Part shown: positions 15,788-57,357 of the stretch, one piece after another
How the letters are laid out: the number at the start of each line of letters is the position of its first letter
Position numbering within the stretch: the first letter of the stretch is position 1
Assembly (NCBI GenBank): GCA_027262695.1
Contig: GCA_027262695.1_4722.1
From: a phage
Direction: 5' to 3' (one strand)
DNA length: 64,000 nucleotides
The notes under the pieces: generated by a model
What the model saw: only the letters and a program-made list of their open reading frames with translations
Told to the model about the DNA's origin: nothing
The model's database searches: none
Translations under genes and position numbers: made by a program

Positions 15788-16084
15788 TTATACCGCTACT
15801 TGTGCTTTAATAGCAGGGTGTGATTGATATCCGACGAACACGAAGTCTTCGTAACGGTAATCCGTGATACTCTCTGGTTTCCGCACAATTTTCAGTTTTG
15901 GTAACGGATACGGCTCACGACTAAGTTGTTCTTTAACCTGTTCGAAGTGGTTATGGTAGATGTGACAATCTCCACCTGTCCACACGAACTCCCCAACGTC
16001 CATATTCAGCTGTTGGGCGATCATGTGTGTCAACAGCGAATATGATGCGATGTTGAACGGAACACCTAAAAATACGTCAGCACT
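15788..16084 (-). CDS. thyA: thymidylate synthase, exon 2
   Basis: [25 protein letters not shown]...[10 protein letters not shown] matches ThyA C-terminal region. Confidence 0.85.
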
Positions 16085-17191
16085 CATTCTGTTCAGATAA
16101 GGTCGTTAGTCTTATCCCGTTATGTTAACCGCTGTAGATTATCTCTACAGTTCGGACTATATCACGATCTCCTTCCCTGGAGACCCCTCCCGTTTCACAC
16201 CCACTTGGGCGTTACGCTACTCATCACTATTTTCATTCATCCGTTTAGTGCTTTCGCTAGTCTCTGGGCATTCTTCTACAAGTCTGTACGATTCAAATTT
16301 GGGATTTTTACTGCCTAATCGATAAAGTATCGTTGCCGGAACAACGCCTAACTGCCGAGCCGCTTCAGTTAGAGAGACGTACTCGATTCCATCGATTTCC
16401 ACTTTACGTGCGTTAAGTGGAATATTCCCTCTATTCCTTTCGGCGATGAGACGGCGCGTTTCTTCGCTATGATGTCGACCATAGAACGGATTCCTTTCTC
16501 CGGTTCTGGTTTTCGCAAACTCCGACATCTTTCGACGTGTTTCGTCACTGACTTTTACCCCTAAACGTCTCGCTCTGGATGCAGCAATATTCTCAGGAGT
16601 ACACACTTTTTGTCGAATGAGTTCACGTGTTTCAGGCGTATGTGTTCGACCATACATCCCGTTACGTTCACCGGGTTTTCCGTACACTATACGACGCTCC
16701 TCTGCTGTTAAGGATGCGTTTCTTTTGTTAACAGCATAAGCTATCTTATCGATTATTTTGTCACGGTCTGGGTTTCTGGTGAGGTTGTCTCCGCCTACGA
16801 CACCCAACCCAATATTAAGCAAAGCTTCATTCGGTAGACAGTCAATGAACTTCTGCTCTAAAGCATATGCTTCTTCACGAGAAGCGCATTCATCGACCGT
16901 AACCGAGATAAAGCAGCCCTTATTATAGGCATTTTGTAATCGACTGTTTCGATGAACACCGCGACGCAAATTCGATTTGTGATCCACTAAGCGTTGCTTT
17001 AAATTGTTGGTACTACCAACATAGACATCACCATCTTGGGTACATAACCGATATACTACTGGTTTTTTCATACTGCCTCCTTTATAAGAGAGACAGACAT
17101 GTAGAAGGTTAGCAACGGATTAGCCCGTAGGCTTTCCCGTTTTAAGGAGGTTATTCGACGTAGCTCACGCTACGAAGGCGCAGTTGCATTT
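16085..17191 (-). mobile_element. group I intron (td-type) in thyA
   Basis: Minus-strand P-like AAAACGGGAAAGCC (17143-17130), R-like CAGAGACTAGCG (16266-16257), S-like GATATAGTCCG (16164-16154); exon 1 ends CGT, IGS GCGC; ORF after QR is read-through (KCNCAFVA). Confidence 0.75.
16217..17071 (-). CDS. GIY-YIG homing endonuclease (intron-encoded)
   Basis: N-terminal VYRLCTQDGDVYVGSTNNLKQRLVDH (GIY-YIG), repeated RNGMYGRTHTPETR / RNPFYGRHHSEETR NUMOD-like motifs; AAAGGAGG RBS. Confidence 0.8.
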   Translation of the reverse strand: MKKPVVYRLCTQDGDVYVGSTNNLKQRLVDHKSNLRRGVHRNSRLQNAYNKGCFISVTVDECASREEAYALEQKFIDCLPNEALLNIGLGVVGGDNLTRNPDRDKIIDKIAYAVNKRNASLTAEERRIVYGKPGERNGMYGRTHTPETRELIRQKVCTPENIAASRARRLGVKVSDETRRKMSEFAKTRTGERNPFYGRHHSEETRRLIAERNRGNIPLNARKVEIDGIEYVSLTEAARQLGVVPATILYRLGSKNPKFESYRLVEECPETSESTKRMNENSDE

Positions 17192-17914
17192 ACGCTGATA
17201 AAGCTGACACGACAGTGCGCGCGTAGGTACGTTATGCGCATTCAACCAGAGTTCGGTTTCGCTCTGTTTAACGTCGTCAGTAACCCATCGTGCCCTTAGC
17301 GCATCGTTACGGTGGACGTAATAAACACGTTCGTCGATGGTGAGCTCGTGAGTGTAGAACTGATAGAAACTATGGCATGCGGGAAGCGCCATATCGTCTA
17401 AATCGCCTACGTTCCATGCACTAACGATAATCCGCCGAGAATCAGGATCTTCTTTGAGTTGACGCATCACGTTTGCAATTTGGTCATGGTGTTTAACATA
17501 CAAGAGATGTTTGACCATACCGTCGTTAACAATACCGCAATACTCATAACCACGTTGCATCAAAGTACGGGTACGTTCTGTATCATGCGGAACAACCACT
17601 TTGTAGTCAATCCATTCTCGCCATTGTCTGCCGTAAATCGGTCCTAGATTCCCTTCCTTATCAGCCCACTCATTCCAGATGCGAACACCATTATCCTGAA
17701 GATAAGCAACGTTTGTGTCGCCGTTAAGAAACCAGAGCAGTTCGTGGATAACGCTCTTAAGGTGAATCTTCTTAGTGGTTACCAGCGGGAATCCTTTCTT
17801 CAAGTCAAAACGCATTTGACGCCCGAATACCGAACGGGTACCGGTACCTGTACGATCGGCCTTATCGCGACCGTTATCCATGATGTCTTGCAAAAGGTCC
17901 AAATACTGTTTCAT
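17192..17914 (-). CDS. thyA: thymidylate synthase, exon 1
   Basis: [61 protein letters not shown] match ThyA. Confidence 0.85.
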
Positions 17915-18187: not shown

Positions 18188-19069
18188 TCAGTAACAGTTA
18201 TAATGGGTTCCAAGCCGCTCCGGTTTTCTCAGAAGACTATCTTTAAGCGGTACGACGTCGATATCAACGTTTTCTGAATAATAACCATTAGAACTACCAT
18301 ACCAACGAATAACAACACATCCTTTTGCTGTACGAATATGGTAAAATGTCCATCGCGTACGTTTGCAAAAGTCGTCATCCTCGTCTCTTTCCTCGGTTCT
18401 TTCTTCAGCGCTAAGTATCTTCTCACCAATAATGTCGTTAAGATCGCCATCGATGTCTTCAAGGTACACTTTTTCACAGCAATCTTGCTTATGGCAGAAT
18501 TCAACAACGTTCCCATCGCCCCGATAGAAAAGAAGGGCAATGCTGTATTGTAGCTGTTCGGCCGTTAAGTCTGTCGCGCAATACAAACTTTGATCTTCGG
18601 TTATCACCAAGACATTGTTGATTACGTGTCCGGCAAGCGCTCCGATCTTATTTACCGTGATAATCGGACGAACCGGTTCAGGTTGAACGATAGGGATACG
18701 AACACAGCCAATTAAAGCCATCCGTCCTTTCTTTGGTCTAACCGCAAGGTAAGGTGATTTTCTTGGGTGGTTATGTAGTCGTATTTCTACCTCGTTGAAT
18801 TTAATCCCGTATATACCCAAAAACCGATCGAACAGTTTATGAAATTCCTCGGTTGCCTCTTGCAGTGTGATGTTATTTACTGTGAGTTTATGTCCCCTGA
18901 ACACCCGGGTTAAATCGATAACATCCAGTGTTTTGAAATATATTTCCGTAAGGGGATGACCCGTGTTTTCCAGGTAAGTAATTGTTCTTTGAACCACGAT
19001 TTTAGGTGGTGTGCCTTTAAAACGTTTCAGATATTTAACACGATAACGGGTATGATCCGATGTTAACAT
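18188..19069 (-). CDS. hypothetical protein
   Basis: Start set to ATG 19069 after GGAGAGGAG RBS (ORF track start 19168 lies in a hairpin). Confidence 0.5.
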   Translation of the reverse strand: MLTSDHTRYRVKYLKRFKGTPPKIVVQRTITYLENTGHPLTEIYFKTLDVIDLTRVFRGHKLTVNNITLQEATEEFHKLFDRFLGIYGIKFNEVEIRLHNHPRKSPYLAVRPKKGRMALIGCVRIPIVQPEPVRPIITVNKIGALAGHVINNVLVITEDQSLYCATDLTAEQLQYSIALLFYRGDGNVVEFCHKQDCCEKVYLEDIDGDLNDIIGEKILSAEERTEERDEDDDFCKRTRWTFYHIRTAKGCVVIRWYGSSNGYYSENVDIDVVPLKDSLLRKPERLGTHYNCY

Positions 19070-19135
19070 TTTAATCTCCTCTCCTGGCTTCAGAGAATTC
19101 TTAAAATCCGTTAGTTTTGATAGATAGGGTAAGAC

Positions 19136-19164
19136 GGCATAAAAGCCTCCCATTACGGGAGGCT
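19136..19164 (-). terminator. GC hairpin followed by TTTTATGCCG box
   Basis: Minus strand GCCTCCCGTAATGGGAGGC TTTTATGCCGTC. Confidence 0.55.
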
Positions 19165-19176
19165 TCATTAATCAGC

Positions 19177-20417: not shown

Positions 20418-21017
20418 TCACCAAACCGATTGGTTATTTTCCACTGAAGGTAAAACAACAATATACATTACCGTTCTTTCGGTCGATGTATTTTCCGGTT
20501 CTGGATAAATAAACTTAATGTTGGGATAACCACAATCGCCGAACAGTTTTTTCAGCAATGGAGTTTGACTCTCCGTCACTTTAACTGGACCCACGCTATA
20601 TCTCGACAGACGGATATTAAACGCGCGAATTGGTTCATCTAAACATTTAGGAGGCGTATGTTTCAATGCTAGAAGCATATGTTCAATGTGTAGACATTTA
20701 ATATCCGCCGGTAAATTCTGGTATGAATCCAAGCCTTGGAGAAAATCAAGCGTCGCTTTACAATCTTCGGCGCTAAATTTTTCTTCGAACTCAAACTTAG
20801 ATACCGTCGTTTTACCATCGACAACATAAGTATTACCTGTCGGAGAAAACGATCTTTTTGTTTTATCATTCATGACAACGTTAATGAATGGATTCCCTGT
20901 AGGATCGCGACTGAATTCAATACAAGCTCCGTCGGGAACGGGATATAAATTGAAAGGACGATTAGCATCGGCAATTTCGTTAGAATGTCCGTTAATCATT
21001 TTCAAATAAATAGTCAT
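20418..21017 (-). CDS. hypothetical protein, member 3 of three-gene tandem paralog family
   Basis: MTIYLKMINGHSNEIADANRP...GNTYVVDGKTTVSKFEFEE. Confidence 0.55.
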   Translation of the reverse strand: MTIYLKMINGHSNEIADANRPFNLYPVPDGACIEFSRDPTGNPFINVVMNDKTKRSFSPTGNTYVVDGKTTVSKFEFEEKFSAEDCKATLDFLQGLDSYQNLPADIKCLHIEHMLLALKHTPPKCLDEPIRAFNIRLSRYSVGPVKVTESQTPLLKKLFGDCGYPNIKFIYPEPENTSTERTVMYIVVLPSVENNQSVW

Positions 21018-34797: not shown

Positions 34798-37059
34798 TTA
34801 CAATTCGAAATCTTCATCGATAACGCGTTGGGTTAGCACCTTGTCGCTGAAGAACTCCACCTTACGTTGATGGTATTTCCGATGTGCTTCAATCGACGTA
34901 CACACCAGATACCAGAACGTGGGTGTCATACCCTCGAACTTCCCTTTCAGCTGACGTAGTCGACCTAACACCTGAATGTTACCAGTTCTCGACCCCATCG
35001 CTAACGTCATGAACGTCATCACCAAGTCAGGAAGATCGATTCCTGTACCAGCCGATTTCACCGTTGTCACACTGATATCATTATCCAGTAACACCATGAA
35101 ATCTTCTTCAGCGGTATAAGGACCTATCTCCAACTCAGGGATACGTTCACTTAAGTAATGCGATAACGACTTGCACATATCAACGGTTGCACAATACACC
35201 AACATCTTCATGCCTTCCTGATATTGGTTCATGAAACCTTTGATAATAACCGTATAGATAAAGTTGAAATAGGCGAGTTTGAGTTGCTTATTCTTCATGA
35301 TAGACTGTTCGAATACCGTGTGAGAATAAGAACCTCCAAAGCCTTTGTATCGGACTTTATCCGTACTGCGTAGTCGATACGTCACCGCATTTACCGCGAT
35401 GTATTTCTTGTATTCACATTTCGCATAACGTGCTTCTTTCGGATACATCAAATACAGCATCCGCTCGATGAACGGATCGTCAGACACCGCCGTTGCCGAC
35501 AGATAAATGATTTCCGGAATATTCGCGTAACACTTCACTTTGAACAAGAAATGCAGAGCTTCGTGACATTCATCGTGGATTAACAATCCAATGCCTGTTT
35601 TCTCCCAGAACTCGACTGGATGGAAAACATAAGGTGCGACACAGTTGTTCTTTTCATAATCGGTTATATAACGCTGAAACATGTTCAGTGAGAATAACGC
35701 AATTTTGAAATCCAACTCACCTTGTTCTACCAGCGTCTGAAATTCCAACATGCTGTAACGAGGAATGTCGGGATGCGGTGGGTCAGACTGGGCTGTACCA
35801 CGTATCTCGATAACATCACCTGGTTCCATACCGAAGAAACTTAGCAGTGAGCTACGCCATCCAGGCATGTACCTCGGTGACAGAATGATGCCCGTCCGTA
35901 CACCACGTCGGAAGGTGATCTCCTGCGACATTGCGGTGTTGTGCGTGACGATATGGTCTTTAATAACATAAAGGCTTTCGTCGTTGTCCACCGTGATGCA
36001 ACGTGCCTTCGCTTTCACCGTCGGCACGATGCCGCCAATCGCTAAACCAGGAAGCGTGTTAACGGGAAGATCATCTGGAATCTCAATGCCGTCAGGAATA
36101 AGCTTAAGCAAATCGGAATGGTAAATTAATGTCTCCATCGTGTAACTATTGATGGGGCATTTATACGCGATTCCCCCTAACCGATAAGCCAACTCCCAGA
36201 CCTCGGTCATTATCTGCGAATCGGTGGTTCTGACCGCAAGGTGAGCCCACCCTTCTTCAACACGCAGTACGCAACGATCTTTGATGAGTTCTCTGAAACG
36301 ATCAAGACCCACGAGTTCTTTCGGTTCGTAAAGTCGGATTCTTACCGGACGAGATCGTGACGATCTGTCATTAAGACGTTCCATGATTTCACTCGTGCTG
36401 AGCACCTTGTCAGGATCCGTGCATTGCCAGAGATGATCACCACACGCTTCAACCATTCGTCCATCTTCAAAGAAGACAGCGTAAAGCTGAATATCGTCAT
36501 GATCAAAGATAGCAGTTACGTTCGTCGGTAAACCATCCGCGCCGATGACCTCATCACCCACCTGGAGCTCACCAATCGGCTTCCAACCGCTTGGAACCTT
36601 AACGGGTGTATGGAGAGCCAATGCTTTCCCAGACCCCGTGCCTGCGGTGTTTAGGCTCATTCTGAAAGGGGTATCCTTACCCCCATCCATGTACTCCAAC
36701 CATTCTTGCTGATCTTCACGCCACGGAAACTTCCAGTTCTTCACAAACTCCACTTCCTTACCTGGAACCGGATCGTGGTAAACGATTTCCAACCACTCCT
36801 TTCGAATTCCTCGAGAAAAGATAAAATCCAAAAACGACTTCAGCTGTTCACGAAGTAAGTAGACCTCGCTATAATCGCTTCTTGCTGCGGCGTAGGTGTT
36901 GATGGTATCGGTGACCATTCTCCGTGTACGAGGGTCGCGTCGTTTCCGTAGATGCAAACAACGGTCTCGAAGGTAATGGCCAATCAAATGGGCAAATCGA
37001 AGTCCGTATCCGCTCAGCTTCATGCCATGCGAGAAGACGTCGATACGAGCTAACTTCAT
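34798..37059 (-). CDS. SF2 DExH helicase interrupted by an intein in motif I
   Basis: Motif I TAGTGSGK|...|T, motif II LIHDECHEA, motif VI TVKSAGTGIDLPDL; 229-aa insert between K145 and T375. Confidence 0.75.
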   Translation of the reverse strand: MKLARIDVFSHGMKLSGYGLRFAHLIGHYLRDRCLHLRKRRDPRTRRMVTDTINTYAAARSDYSEVYLLREQLKSFLDFIFSRGIRKEWLEIVYHDPVPGKEVEFVKNWKFPWREDQQEWLEYMDGGKDTPFRMSLNTAGTGSGKALALHTPVKVPSGWKPIGELQVGDEVIGADGLPTNVTAIFDHDDIQLYAVFFEDGRMVEACGDHLWQCTDPDKVLSTSEIMERLNDRSSRSRPVRIRLYEPKELVGLDRFRELIKDRCVLRVEEGWAHLAVRTTDSQIMTEVWELAYRLGGIAYKCPINSYTMETLIYHSDLLKLIPDGIEIPDDLPVNTLPGLAIGGIVPTVKAKARCITVDNDESLYVIKDHIVTHNTAMSQEITFRRGVRTGIILSPRYMPGWRSSLLSFFGMEPGDVIEIRGTAQSDPPHPDIPRYSMLEFQTLVEQGELDFKIALFSLNMFQRYITDYEKNNCVAPYVFHPVEFWEKTGIGLLIHDECHEALHFLFKVKCYANIPEIIYLSATAVSDDPFIERMLYLMYPKEARYAKCEYKKYIAVNAVTYRLRSTDKVRYKGFGGSYSHTVFEQSIMKNKQLKLAYFNFIYTVIIKGFMNQYQEGMKMLVYCATVDMCKSLSHYLSERIPELEIGPYTAEEDFMVLLDNDISVTTVKSAGTGIDLPDLVMTFMTLAMGSRTGNIQVLGRLRQLKGKFEGMTPTFWYLVCTSIEAHRKYHQRKVEFFSDKVLTQRVIDEDFEL
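35938..36624 (-). mobile_element. mini-intein (class-3-like: Ala1, W-C-T motif)
   Basis: Starts ALALHTPVKV...VGDEVIGADG, block B GRMVEACGDHLW (W at B:12), block F RCITVDN, ends IVTHN followed by Thr; removal restores GSGKT. Confidence 0.7.
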
Positions 37060-55356: not shown

Positions 55357-55734
55357 CTGTTTGTCGACTATATCTTCATCTTCATTGCGAAGAGACTCTC
55401 GTTTGGGTTTGTGTTTAACAAAGCCTACTCTACTCAACATCGCGTCTTTCGATAGTCTGTGAGCACACATCTTAACGAATATTCGTGGGTTCCTACAGAC
55501 AGGTGAATATTCTTGTTGAGATGCTTCGCTGCGGATTATTCCCGTCCTACCTCTTTTACCATACCCAGTTCATTACGCTGGCCCTCATCGATGTCACCAT
55601 GATGAGTTGGTGTGTAGTCCGATTACAGAAACTTCCCGTCAATTAGAGAGTTTTAACTATGCTCCTGTTACCAGGAACCAGATCCCGACGGTATCAATAA
55701 ATCAACGTAAGTTATTGATTTAATTGAAAAAACT
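55357..55734 (-). mobile_element. group I intron 2 in beta-prime gene (no ORF)
   Basis: Minus-strand P AATTGACGGGAAG (55643-55631), Q AATCCGCAGCGAAG (55536-55523), R CACAGACTATCG (55460-55449), S AAGATATAGTC (55376-55366). Confidence 0.7.
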
Positions 55735-55747
55735 GAAATCTGCATTA
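55735..55747 (-). CDS. beta-prime micro-exon 2 (13 nt, encodes part of Y-N-A-D-F)
   Basis: Minus-strand ATAATGCAGATTT between the two introns; joined to flanking exons gives ...KGYNADFDGDAM... and a 1494-nt in-frame CDS. Confidence 0.6.
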
Positions 55748-56114
55748 TCTTAATCTTCGATATGGTTCGCTAAGCCATATCCGCACATACGTGCAGCTTA
55801 CGTCTTTCACGTAAGAAGAGACTATATCTTTCACCCTCAGCTTTACCTGTTAGGGGCTCCCATTTCGGCGGTCGTTTGACCGGTGGTTTCCCACGCCGCT
55901 TGGCCCTAACGCCCGTGAGCGATAGTCGTTGAGCACATCTCCGTTCTGGAGACTTCGCTGCGGATTCCTCAATCCTTACTGCTTTTACCGTACCTGAATG
56001 ATTAGTTCAGCCCCACGCTCTGTTCCCAGGCATGGTTGGTGAGCAAGGCTCTAAGTAGGTTCCCGCTATTAGAGAGTTCCTCGTGACAGCATTACTGTGT
56101 CACTGGGCCTAATG
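55748..56114 (-). mobile_element. group I intron 1 in beta-prime gene (no ORF)
   Basis: Minus-strand P AATAGCGGGAAC (56069-56058), Q AATCCGCAGCGAAG (55965-55952), R CAACGACTATCG (55930-55919), S AAGATATAGTC (55829-55819); exon ends GGGT, IGS GCCC. Confidence 0.7.
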
Positions 56115-57357
56115 ACCCTTTCAAGATCATCACGCTTAACCCGATGGTGTTATCCTGCGGGTCGCGTTTAACCTTGGTGATTTCAAGACATTGGTTACTG
56201 CTACGGTCAAGTGATGGATTTCGAACAAAGCCACACACAATCCCATCGAACGGTGTATCAGCAATAAGCTCGTCATGCAGCTCGCTCATCATCGGATGAT
56301 AATTGCGGACATGCTCTGCAACGAACGCACGGGCTGCTCTTGGTGAATAACCACGATGGAATAACTTGGATTGGATATGTTCTTTATTGGTTAGTGTAAA
56401 TGGTGCGTACGGAAAATGCAGATGATAATAACGATGGTTTGCTGTTATCGAACTGATGACCGTACGTGTGGTGAATGGATGTAATGTACCTAATATGTTC
56501 TTACGTGTGATCCCTTTCTTCTTACCAATGAACTCATCGAAAATCGCCGAGTGATACTGCAACAGCTTCAATTGCACTTTCGCCATCCAGTTTTCTTTCT
56601 TTCTGGCGCTTAGTGGCGTGGTTGGATGATAGATGCTATTCAATGTTCCGATGGCGTCTATCGCACCTTCCATTTTGCTGTCAGCGTAACGTCCTGTTGG
56701 CGTGTTCTCGATCACGAACATCATGGCTGCAGGAAAGCTGATGTACTGACTGAAGAATTTATCCCGATGAATACGGATGAATTCGCGTAGCGTATCAACC
56801 TTCTCCATGTTCTTCGGTCCACGTAGTGTGGGTCCTTTATACAAGATCTCCATGATACGATCGAAGTTCTGTATAAAGCTATTTATACCGCGTCGTATTC
56901 CGAATACATCGAATTGCTGTTCCAGATAGTTCTTAAGTTCGATCGGTCGTTTTACGTTCGGACGGTAACTGGCATCAATGAGCCACGTCATCGTTTCAAA
57001 GCTTTTGATATTCAACTCGCTTGCCAGCACGAGATGGACCAACGGGTTAATGAACGCATCGATACCTTCCGGTACGCGCGCCCAGACCGTTGAACGAATC
57101 TCTTGTTCTGCTGGATAAGTGACAACCGTTTTACAGTTCGGGCACACCGTCCCTAATAACTCACCGCGATTATAGAAACCACAACCGCATTGCGGGGTGA
57201 TATCCAAGGTATCGCTCGAGTAAACACGGGTGATGAAACTGTTTAATTTCTTCTTCTCTTCCACGACCTTCGTATCATAATCGTTCAACAATATCGGCGT
57301 AAAAGGAAGTTCTGCGAGCTGTCTATCGAAACTGACGATATCGAGCATGATGGCCAT
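56115..57357 (-). CDS. RNA polymerase beta-prime-like subunit N-terminal part, exon 1
   Basis: Zinc site TPQCGCGFYNRGELLGTVCPNCKTVV ~ beta-prime YECLCGKY...CEKCGVEV; RKNILG...RTVISS ~ RFRQNLLGKRVDYSGRSVI; VRNPSLDRS ~ LNRAPTLHR. Confidence 0.75.

Follow-up and report, generated by a model that had tools for sequence, protein, structure and literature searches.

Which element interrupts the ATP-binding loop of a phage helicase, and how does it persist in such a place? The question is raised by a 64,000-nucleotide stretch of phage DNA (GenBank assembly GCA_027262695.1, contig GCA_027262695.1_4722.1; the window in the following), in which a gene for a DNA helicase of superfamily 2 (SF2, DExH type) encodes 229 additional amino acids within helicase motif I, the P-loop or Walker A motif. 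Judged by its sequence and predicted fold, this insert is very probably a class 3 intein with a dead LAGLIDADG remnant, which persists by splicing. A first-pass annotation, made from the sequence of the window, had proposed a class 3 mini-intein in the P-loop of an SF2 helicase; our analysis agrees with the class and the site and arrives at a different view of the endonuclease part.

The translation of the gene reads ...NTAGTGSGK(145) / ALALHTPVKV...KDHIVTHN(374) / T(375)AMSQEITF..., with the junctions marked by slashes, and places the insertion between Lys145 and Thr375 of motif I (GTGSGK/T). The strings on which the first-pass annotation had relied (TAGTGSGK, GRMVEACGDHLW, RCITVDN and IVTHN/T) are all present in this translation, and the coordinates, length and initial alanine of the insert came out the same, with the gene on the minus strand. 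A megablast search of the gene against the GenBank phages found only Escherichia phage vB_EcoM_Goslar, with 92% identity and 69% query cover in two pieces. The corresponding Goslar protein, gp164, has 524 amino acids, is 99% identical at the protein level with one gap of exactly the 229 residues, and has an intact motif I (GTGSGKT). Because of this natural intein-free allele, the boundaries of the insert are fixed to the codon and not by motif reading alone. The insertion is in frame, its removal restores the conserved host sequence GSGKT as had been predicted, and intein-free homologs exist in a cluster of 140 members. By calculation, the precursor has a mass of 86.9 kDa; splicing would yield an intein of 25.7 kDa, which had been estimated closely (~25 kDa), and a helicase of 61.2 kDa, for which the estimate (~59 kDa) was too low.

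The two ends of the insert form a HINT fold with the splicing blocks A, B, F and G. Block A is ALALHTP and starts with Ala1, block B is GRMVEACGDHLW and contains Cys61 (B:7), His64 (B:10) and Trp66 (B:12), block F is KARCITVDN with Cys209 at F:4, and block G is HIVTHN with Thr227 (G:5), His228 and Asn229. Class 3 inteins have no N-terminal nucleophile and carry His B:10, His G:6, Asn G:7 and a Ser or Thr, rarely a Cys, at position +1; their marker residues include Trp B:12, Cys F:4 as the initiating nucleophile and Thr G:5 (PMC5222942, PMC3196547, PMC7664689). In the window, the residues common to inteins (His64, His228, Asn229 and +1 Thr375) are accompanied by Ala1 instead of a Ser, Thr or Cys nucleophile, by Trp B:12, Cys F:4 and Thr G:5 and by a +1 Thr, which is the complete W-C-T pattern that the first-pass annotation had described.

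Independent comparisons lead to the same class. A phmmer search against all PDB sequences gave as best matches the class 3 DnaB-1 inteins of Mycobacterium chimaera (6rix, 6riy) and M. smegmatis (6bs8) with an expect value (E) of 1e-13, aligned as ALALHTPVKVPSGW / ALALYTPLPTPTGW at the N-terminus and as ARCITVDN...THN / VRCVEVDN...THN (6rix, 6bs8) at the C-terminus. In this alignment His64, Trp66, Cys209 and Thr227 are opposite His65, Trp67, Cys124 and Thr143 of MchDnaB-1 (numbering of PMC7664689). The NCBIfam profile TIGR01443 for the intein C-terminal splicing region scored above its curated cut-off. In Pfam, the comparison that had been recommended, Hint profiles matched the whole protein or the intein only below threshold (E 0.007-0.18), so that Pfam alone would miss this intein; the NCBIfam profile, the PDB search and the fold comparison were all positive. 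An AlphaFold2 model from an 88-sequence alignment reached a mean predicted local distance difference test (pLDDT) value of 92.9 and a predicted template modelling score (pTM) of 0.88, and Foldseek ranked class 3 inteins at the top (target-normalised template modelling scores of 0.75-0.88). In these sequence and structure comparisons, the closest neighbours were all class 3 inteins.

We infer splicing and the order of its steps from homologs, for which the class 3 mechanism and the defining residues have been described (PMC5222942, PMC3196547, PMC7664689). The branched intermediate and the effect of mutating Cys F:4 have been examined by experiment in MP-Be DnaB, Dra Snf2 and Msm DnaB-1 (PMC5222942). 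An 87-kDa precursor would be translated with an interrupted ATP-binding loop, and since its Walker A loop is split it should be unable to bind ATP and inactive until spliced. Cys209 (F:4), activated by His64 in a site shaped by Thr227 and Trp66, would attack the bond between Lys145 and Ala146, leaving the N-extein on the Cys209 thiol as the class-specific block F branched thioester. The N-extein would then be transferred to the hydroxyl of Thr375 (+1), Asn374, aided by His373, would cyclise and release the 25.7-kDa intein, and an O-to-N acyl shift would create a normal peptide bond. The product would be a 524-amino-acid, 61.2-kDa helicase with the motif GTGSGKT, the same as Goslar gp164. The element probably no longer cuts DNA, and it would persist by splicing and move between co-infecting phages by recombination.

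The part of the intein between the splicing halves had been described as showing no evident homing endonuclease domain. The alignment to the intein of Erwinia phage Rebecca and the fold revealed instead that these ~125 amino acids are a single relic LAGLIDADG half-domain, with the alpha-beta-beta-alpha-beta-beta-alpha topology of this family, a motif helix (DRFRELIKDRC) and a conserved strand (LGGIAYK). Residues ~105-155 of the window intein (LDRFRELIKDRCVLRVEEGWAHLAVRTT...LAYRLGGIAYK) align with the LAGLIDADG region of Rebecca. The motif itself is destroyed, reading F-R-E-L-I-K-D-R-C versus the family consensus L-[QR]-G-L-[ML]-D-[TS]-D-G; all 12 Goslar-type variants have Arg117 in place of the catalytic Asp. 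An active enzyme has two motifs, or a single one that dimerises, each with a catalytic acidic residue, and what is left here is one half-domain with a degenerate motif. Pfam found no LAGLIDADG match in the window intein, and the middle domain alone matched nothing. Antisense or out-of-frame endonuclease open reading frames (ORFs) have been reported for some actinophage inteins (bioRxiv 10.1101/2025.01.02.630785); a gene of this kind was considered here and rejected, since no alternative frame in the region exceeds 69 codons. Because only one half-domain is present, its motif is gone and no alternative-frame ORF above this length exists, the window intein appears to have once been full-size and to have since lost one half of the endonuclease together with the active site of the other; the remnant is predicted to be catalytically dead.

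Relatives of the insert are numerous in phages. A tblastn search against phage genomes matched 551 records, 300 of them mycobacteriophages, and many of the others were jumbo phages in which the match spanned the whole 229 amino acids. The orthologous and syntenic helicases of Pseudomonas phage EL (gp040) and Erwinia phage Rebecca (gp251), both encoded immediately downstream of the gene for an RNA polymerase beta subunit, contain an intein at the same G-x-G-K/T site, with 248 amino acids in EL and 345 in Rebecca. The Rebecca intein has both LAGLIDADG motifs (GAMLGDGGF and LLQGLLDTDGTV) and matches Pfam LAGLIDADG_3 above the cut-off (E 5e-11). In an alignment of nine inteins from this type of site the endonuclease decays in a graded manner, from the complete Rebecca domain through SL2 and Eowyn to EL and the window and finally to PS1, KpLz and VP4B.

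With the single intein as query, a word-indexed homolog search returned only one partial Salmonella protein, since such a search misses distant relatives that have no 5-residue word in common with the query. A profile built from nine inteins of jumbo phages reached them, finding 419 proteins at E <= 1e-3 in the word-indexed database, which gives a family of at least 419 members. These inteins reside mostly in PhoH, DnaB, SNF2, AAA_24 and RecA-type P-loop ATPases, and most of them have a Pfam LAGLIDADG_3 domain; a typical member has 340-360 amino acids and is inserted as G(T/S)GK/AQPL...VTHN/T. Among 119 aligned relatives, His B:10, Cys F:4 and the terminal Thr-His-Asn are present in all 119, Trp B:12 in 117 and Ala1 in 111. 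An exhaustive phmmer search with the window intein against 1.84 billion cluster representatives yielded 10,546 proteins at E <= 1e-3, of which 2,315 were at E <= 1e-10. No further intein of the same family was found in the window.

Class 3 inteins at the Lys/Thr site of the P-loop are already well known, and the window copy is an unannotated further example with no new mechanism or architecture. Insertion at this position has been called a 'classic' intein site and has been described for TerL1-a (PMC5050341), class 3 inteins are known from phage helicases and terminases and from the Deinococcus radiodurans Snf2 protein (PMC5050341, PMC3196547), and the class as a whole has been suggested to have originated in phages (PMC3196547, PMC5050341). 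In a literature search of incomplete coverage we found no description of class 3 inteins in the helicases of Goslar, EL or other nucleus-forming jumbo phages. Unannotated class 3 inteins are present in several published jumbo phages (EL, Rebecca, PS1, KpLz-2_45, SL2, VP4B and Eowyn). In the records examined, the host proteins of jumbo-phage inteins are named DNA helicase, 'DarB-like antirestriction', terminase or hypothetical protein, and never intein. EL-like genomes gave three to four separate matches each, suggesting that they carry several related inteins.

To see how selection acts on the parts of the gene, the ratio of nonsynonymous to synonymous substitution rates (dN/dS) was calculated after Nei and Gojobori between the window and a second Goslar-like genome (L006, IMG/VR uncultivated virus genome 3300011560_000001), which has the same 753-amino-acid architecture and an intein with 83% protein identity. 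The ratio was 0.07 for the N-terminal HINT half, 0.05 for the C-terminal HINT part, 0.05 for the N-extein, 0.017 for the C-extein and 0.36 for the relic endonuclease domain (Fisher p 7e-5 versus the HINT parts). Low ratios in the splicing halves, like those of the exteins, are expected if failed splicing kills the helicase. Across the 12 distinct intein variants of the Goslar type, variation affects only 2 of 31 sites in the C-terminal part, compared with 16 of 69 in the N-terminal HINT half (largely residues 1-5) and 45 of 129 in the middle. This pattern of variation is as expected for an intein that must still splice to give a working helicase and whose endonuclease remnant is constrained only to fold.

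The distribution of the intein among close relatives shows that it is a presence/absence polymorphism in Goslar-like phages which does not follow the extein sequence. The exact protein of the window occurs on 12 public contigs of up to 248 kb, and its 90%-identity cluster has 158 members, of which the full-length ones listed have 753 amino acids; the named members, all of them labelled 'hypothetical protein', derive from assemblies of Salmonella enterica and E. coli. The 90%-identity cluster of the intein-free Goslar type, with its 140 members, comes from the same kinds of source. In the Goslar-like phages of Salmonella and E. coli, alleles with and without the intein occur side by side and are about equally numerous. 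The exteins of both kinds of allele are intermixed: those of the window differ at 2-6 residues from intein-free Goslar-type alleles and at 13-17 from other intein-containing ones, which in turn are only 1-2 residues away from particular intein-free alleles. Two haplotypes flank the junction, each occurring with and without the intein. Within one of them, every allele with the intein has Val at helicase residue 382 (+8; window 35914-35916) and every allele without it has Thr; the window allele, which contains the intein and belongs to the other haplotype, has Thr at +8. Val +8 and the intein could go together because a very short tract was co-converted, or because this extein residue is adapted to splicing. 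L006 and Goslar are mostly 94-99% identical over ~3 kb of flanking nucleotides on each side, and only 76-79% identical in the 400 nucleotides immediately 3´ of the insertion site. A homing co-conversion tract was considered for this segment and downgraded, since the same flanking haplotype is found in intein-free alleles; recombination at or near the site is therefore shown, and not necessarily homing. These patterns lead us to conclude that recombination among co-circulating phages has repeatedly introduced or removed the intein.

Several points weigh against the interpretation as a splicing class 3 intein with a dead endonuclease. Position B:7 is a Cys, where the Thr of a TxxH motif is usual; Cys is the norm in this family (94 of 119 relatives), and B:7 of MchDnaB-1 is not Thr either. 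At position +1 there is a Thr, less nucleophilic than Cys and typical of class 3 (PMC5222942). Furthermore, three alignments (A5, A6 and A7) disagree on whether the surviving helix derives from LAGLIDADG motif 1 or 2, which leaves the placement of the deletion ambiguous. The relic domain is under significant constraint (dN/dS 0.36; Fisher p 1.3e-4 versus neutrality), and the description as a dead relic may therefore be incomplete; the domain may aid folding or have another role. Finally, an intein with a perfect sequence can still splice poorly in its native context, and splicing is predicted here.

The constraint on the remnant and the scattered distribution of the intein bear on two further proposals. 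In the first, the nuclease-less intein would still be spreading, the relic targeting DNA as a homodimer or together with a free-standing homing endonuclease of the phage acting in trans, or the intein would be a conditional switch (for instance a redox switch via Cys209 and Cys61) that times the activation of the helicase in infection; we regard this as unlikely. In the second, the half-domain would itself still be a working endonuclease or DNA-targeting module, for example a homodimer like I-CreI, and actively home into Goslar-type helicase genes that lack the intein. I-CreI and I-MsoI are single-motif LAGLIDADG enzymes that act as homodimers, the domain of the window intein is predicted to fold with high confidence and is under the purifying selection just described, the intein is decoupled from the extein haplotype with alleles differing by as little as 1-3 residues, and the 400-nucleotide divergent tract between L006 and Goslar begins exactly at the insertion site. 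However, the conserved G-x-x-D-x-D-G reads E-x-x-K-x-R-C in the window, with the catalytic Asp replaced by Arg in every variant, and no conserved acidic residue is located nearby (D116 of the window corresponds to Gly in most other variants, and Glu119 of these is replaced by Val in the window). In addition, no alternative-frame ORF of more than 69 amino acids is available, and the divergent flank is also present in intein-free alleles, so that ordinary recombination explains the mosaic. Active homing by the half-domain is thus very improbable.

The decay of the endonuclease part could also suggest that the insert as a whole is a splicing-dead relic or a domesticated insertion domain that is retained, with the 753-amino-acid protein as the functional form or a pseudogene, and inactive class 3 intein pseudogenes such as Arth_1007 do exist (PMC3196547). 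Arth_1007 has lost His B:10 and Cys F:4 (PMC3196547), whereas every catalytic residue of the window intein is intact. A retained insert would separate the Walker A Lys from its Thr, which is incompatible with ATP binding, while the exteins are under very strong purifying selection (dN/dS 0.02-0.05), the splicing blocks are almost as constrained (0.05-0.07) and the C-terminal sites hardly vary among the variants. Moreover, the intein-containing allele is present in 158 cluster members, on contigs of phage size (~240 kb). We therefore consider a splicing-dead insert highly unlikely.

Scarcely probable, too, is an active intein that uses a class 1 or class 2 route, with the +1 Thr or another residue attacking the N-terminal junction and W-C-T retained by descent only: the class assignment does come from sequence and fold, and the close variant P0276 has Cys1 yet keeps W-C-T, but Ala1 is incapable of the acyl shift used by class 1, none of the 119 relatives lacks Cys F:4, class 2 inteins have been reported only in KlbA proteins (PMC3196547), and the nearest structures, MchDnaB-1 and MsmDnaB-1, are experimentally studied class 3 inteins (PMC7664689, PMC5222942, PMC6195587). 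P0276 is a 753-amino-acid helicase from a Salmonella enterica serovar Panama assembly, whose intein differs from that of the window at 20 of 229 residues and starts with Cys (CLEISTPVKVPGGW; CLEISTP...). It keeps Trp B:12, Cys F:4 and Thr G:5 despite this class 1-type residue; position 1 is therefore evolutionarily labile in this lineage, and the variant could inform on its evolution.

The class 3 intein of the window can be set beside several described systems. The mycobacterial DnaB-1 mini-inteins (MchDnaB-1, 6rix/6riy; M. smegmatis DnaBi1, 6bs8) are located in a bacterial DnaB, a RecA-fold hexameric helicase, whereas the window intein is in a phage SF2 helicase. They have 128-146 amino acids and no endonuclease remnant, in contrast to the ~125-amino-acid half-domain retained here, and they have Asp at B:7 where the window has Cys; at +1, MchDnaB-1 has Ser (PMC7664689) and the window Thr. 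Cys61 (B:7; window 36442-36444) and the catalytic Cys209 might allow redox control, of which the Cys48-Cys118 disulfide of M. smegmatis DnaBi1 is a demonstrated case (PMC6195587).

The inteins of the 'AQPL...VTHN/T' type in P-loop ATPases (EL gp040, Rebecca gp251, Aeromonas PS1, Vibrio VP4B, Klebsiella KpLz-2_45 and Pseudomonas SL2) share the insertion point and all signature residues with the window intein, at 26-33% identity over the full intein length (for Rebecca 41% over the aligned 71%). Typical members have a complete two-motif LAGLIDADG_3 domain, of which the window copy lacks one half and the catalytic motif, and its N-terminus, ALALHTP, is closer to the actinobacterial DnaB-1 type than to the AQPL consensus. 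PI-SceI differs in belonging to class 1 (Cys1) and in having an active endonuclease, complete with both motifs, as well as a DNA-recognition region, unlike the class 3 window intein with its single degenerate half-domain. The class 3 inteins of mycobacteriophages (Bethlehem DnaB, Catera gp206 and TerL1) are phage-borne and have the W-C-T triplet, as in the window. Snf2 proteins are members of SF2. For one of them, the Snf2 protein of Deinococcus radiodurans, a class 3 intein is already on record (PMC3196547). Both groups differ from the window in their hosts (Actinobacteria and Deinococcus) and host proteins, and their similarity to it is limited to the splicing blocks.

The interrupted gene is itself conserved. 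SF2 helicases are built from two RecA-like domains, and in the intein-free form the protein has their motifs GTGSGK/T, LLIHDECHE (II), LSAT (III) and QVLGRLRQ (VI), the last three in the C-extein, in agreement with the helicase type that had been named; it matches PHROG 16 (DNA helicase, E 6e-26) and, weakly, the NCBIfam XPB profile (E 1.5e-6). A PDB sequence search with the intein-free helicase found no relative. Goslar gp164 is annotated as 'DNA helicase' (COG1061 SSL2), and protein identity and synteny make the window helicase the ortholog of Goslar gp164, EL gp040 and Rebecca gp251, with a gene for an RNA polymerase beta subunit directly upstream. This SF2 helicase is conserved in the nucleus-forming jumbo phages compared (Goslar, EL and Rebecca). 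The window is collinear with ~116.5-177.6 kb of Goslar at 80-93% nucleotide identity and encodes chimallin, RNA polymerase subunits and a DNA polymerase, and because of this gene content its source is identified as a Goslar-like nucleus-forming jumbo phage.

Recognising these inteins, in the window cluster as well as in EL, Rebecca, SL2, PS1, VP4B and Eowyn, corrects gene models and protein sizes, and it carries the association with phages that has been proposed for class 3 inteins over to enterobacterial jumbo phages. The Goslar-like population combines alleles with and without the intein in near-identical backgrounds, a decay series at one site and a close Cys1 variant. As a natural system it is well suited to work on the persistence and mobility of inteins that have lost the endonuclease and on the evolution of position 1 in class 3.

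Table 1. Features of the helicase locus and other differences to Goslar in the 64,000-nucleotide window.
Feature	Position	Strand	Details and basis
Precursor gene, SF2 (DExH-type) DNA helicase	34798..37059	minus	753 amino acids including the intein; ORF list
N-extein, residues 1-145	36625..37059	minus	ends in motif I, ...TAGTGSGK; translation and alignment to Goslar gp164
Intein, class 3 type, 229 amino acids	35938..36624	minus	protein residues 146-374; translation
N-terminal HINT half, intein residues 1-69	36418..36624	minus	alignment with MchDnaB-1 and MsmDnaB-1 (E 1e-13)
Relic homing-endonuclease domain, intein residues ~70-198	36031..36417	minus	single LAGLIDADG half-domain; alignment to Rebecca intein and fold
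C-terminal HINT part, intein residues 199-229	35938..36030	minus	TIGR01443 above cut-off
C-extein, from Thr375	34798..35937	minus	motifs II, III and VI, stop codon included; translation and alignment to Goslar gp164
Thymidylate synthase gene, split	15788-17914	minus	exon 1 17165..17914 (Pfam Thymidylat_synt positions 1-171), exon 2 15788..16087
I-TevI-like ORF between the thymidylate synthase exons	16217..17071		GIY-YIG, NUMOD3 and I-TevI DNA-binding domain
Insertion versus Goslar	18188-19168	minus	~0.9 kb, 326-amino-acid ORF with Pfam DUF7448
Insertion versus Goslar	20418-21017	minus	~0.66 kb, 199-amino-acid ORF, no Pfam match
Two tandem group I intron-like matches	55357-56135	minus	55357-55726 and 55798-56135; adjoining or overlapping the 3´ end of the RNA polymerase beta subunit ORF 56092..57357

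Other parts of the window also differ from Goslar by insertions and deletions (Table 1). The thymidylate synthase gene is split by ~1.08 kb that hold the I-TevI-like ORF, while Goslar thyA (gp141) is uninterrupted; the arrangement resembles that of the T4 td intron, and a search with Rfam found no group I intron at the split at E <= 0.1. Of the two tandem intron-like matches, the first, with 49.2 bits (E 1e-9), narrowly missed the Rfam cut-off of 50, and the second scored 26.9 bits (E 0.005), at a place where the window has 369 extra nucleotides (55748-56117). Goslar has the first intron only, and in addition a 1.4-kb HNH endonuclease gene (gp186) that is not in the window. Several such mobile-element differences fit a genome under heavy traffic of selfish elements.

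Genomes of the Goslar-like type, ~240 kb long, occur as whole contigs in many isolate assemblies of S. enterica (Typhimurium, Kentucky, Panama and Newport) and E. coli O157, suggesting that lytic jumbo phages are often carried with, or contaminate, cultured isolates.

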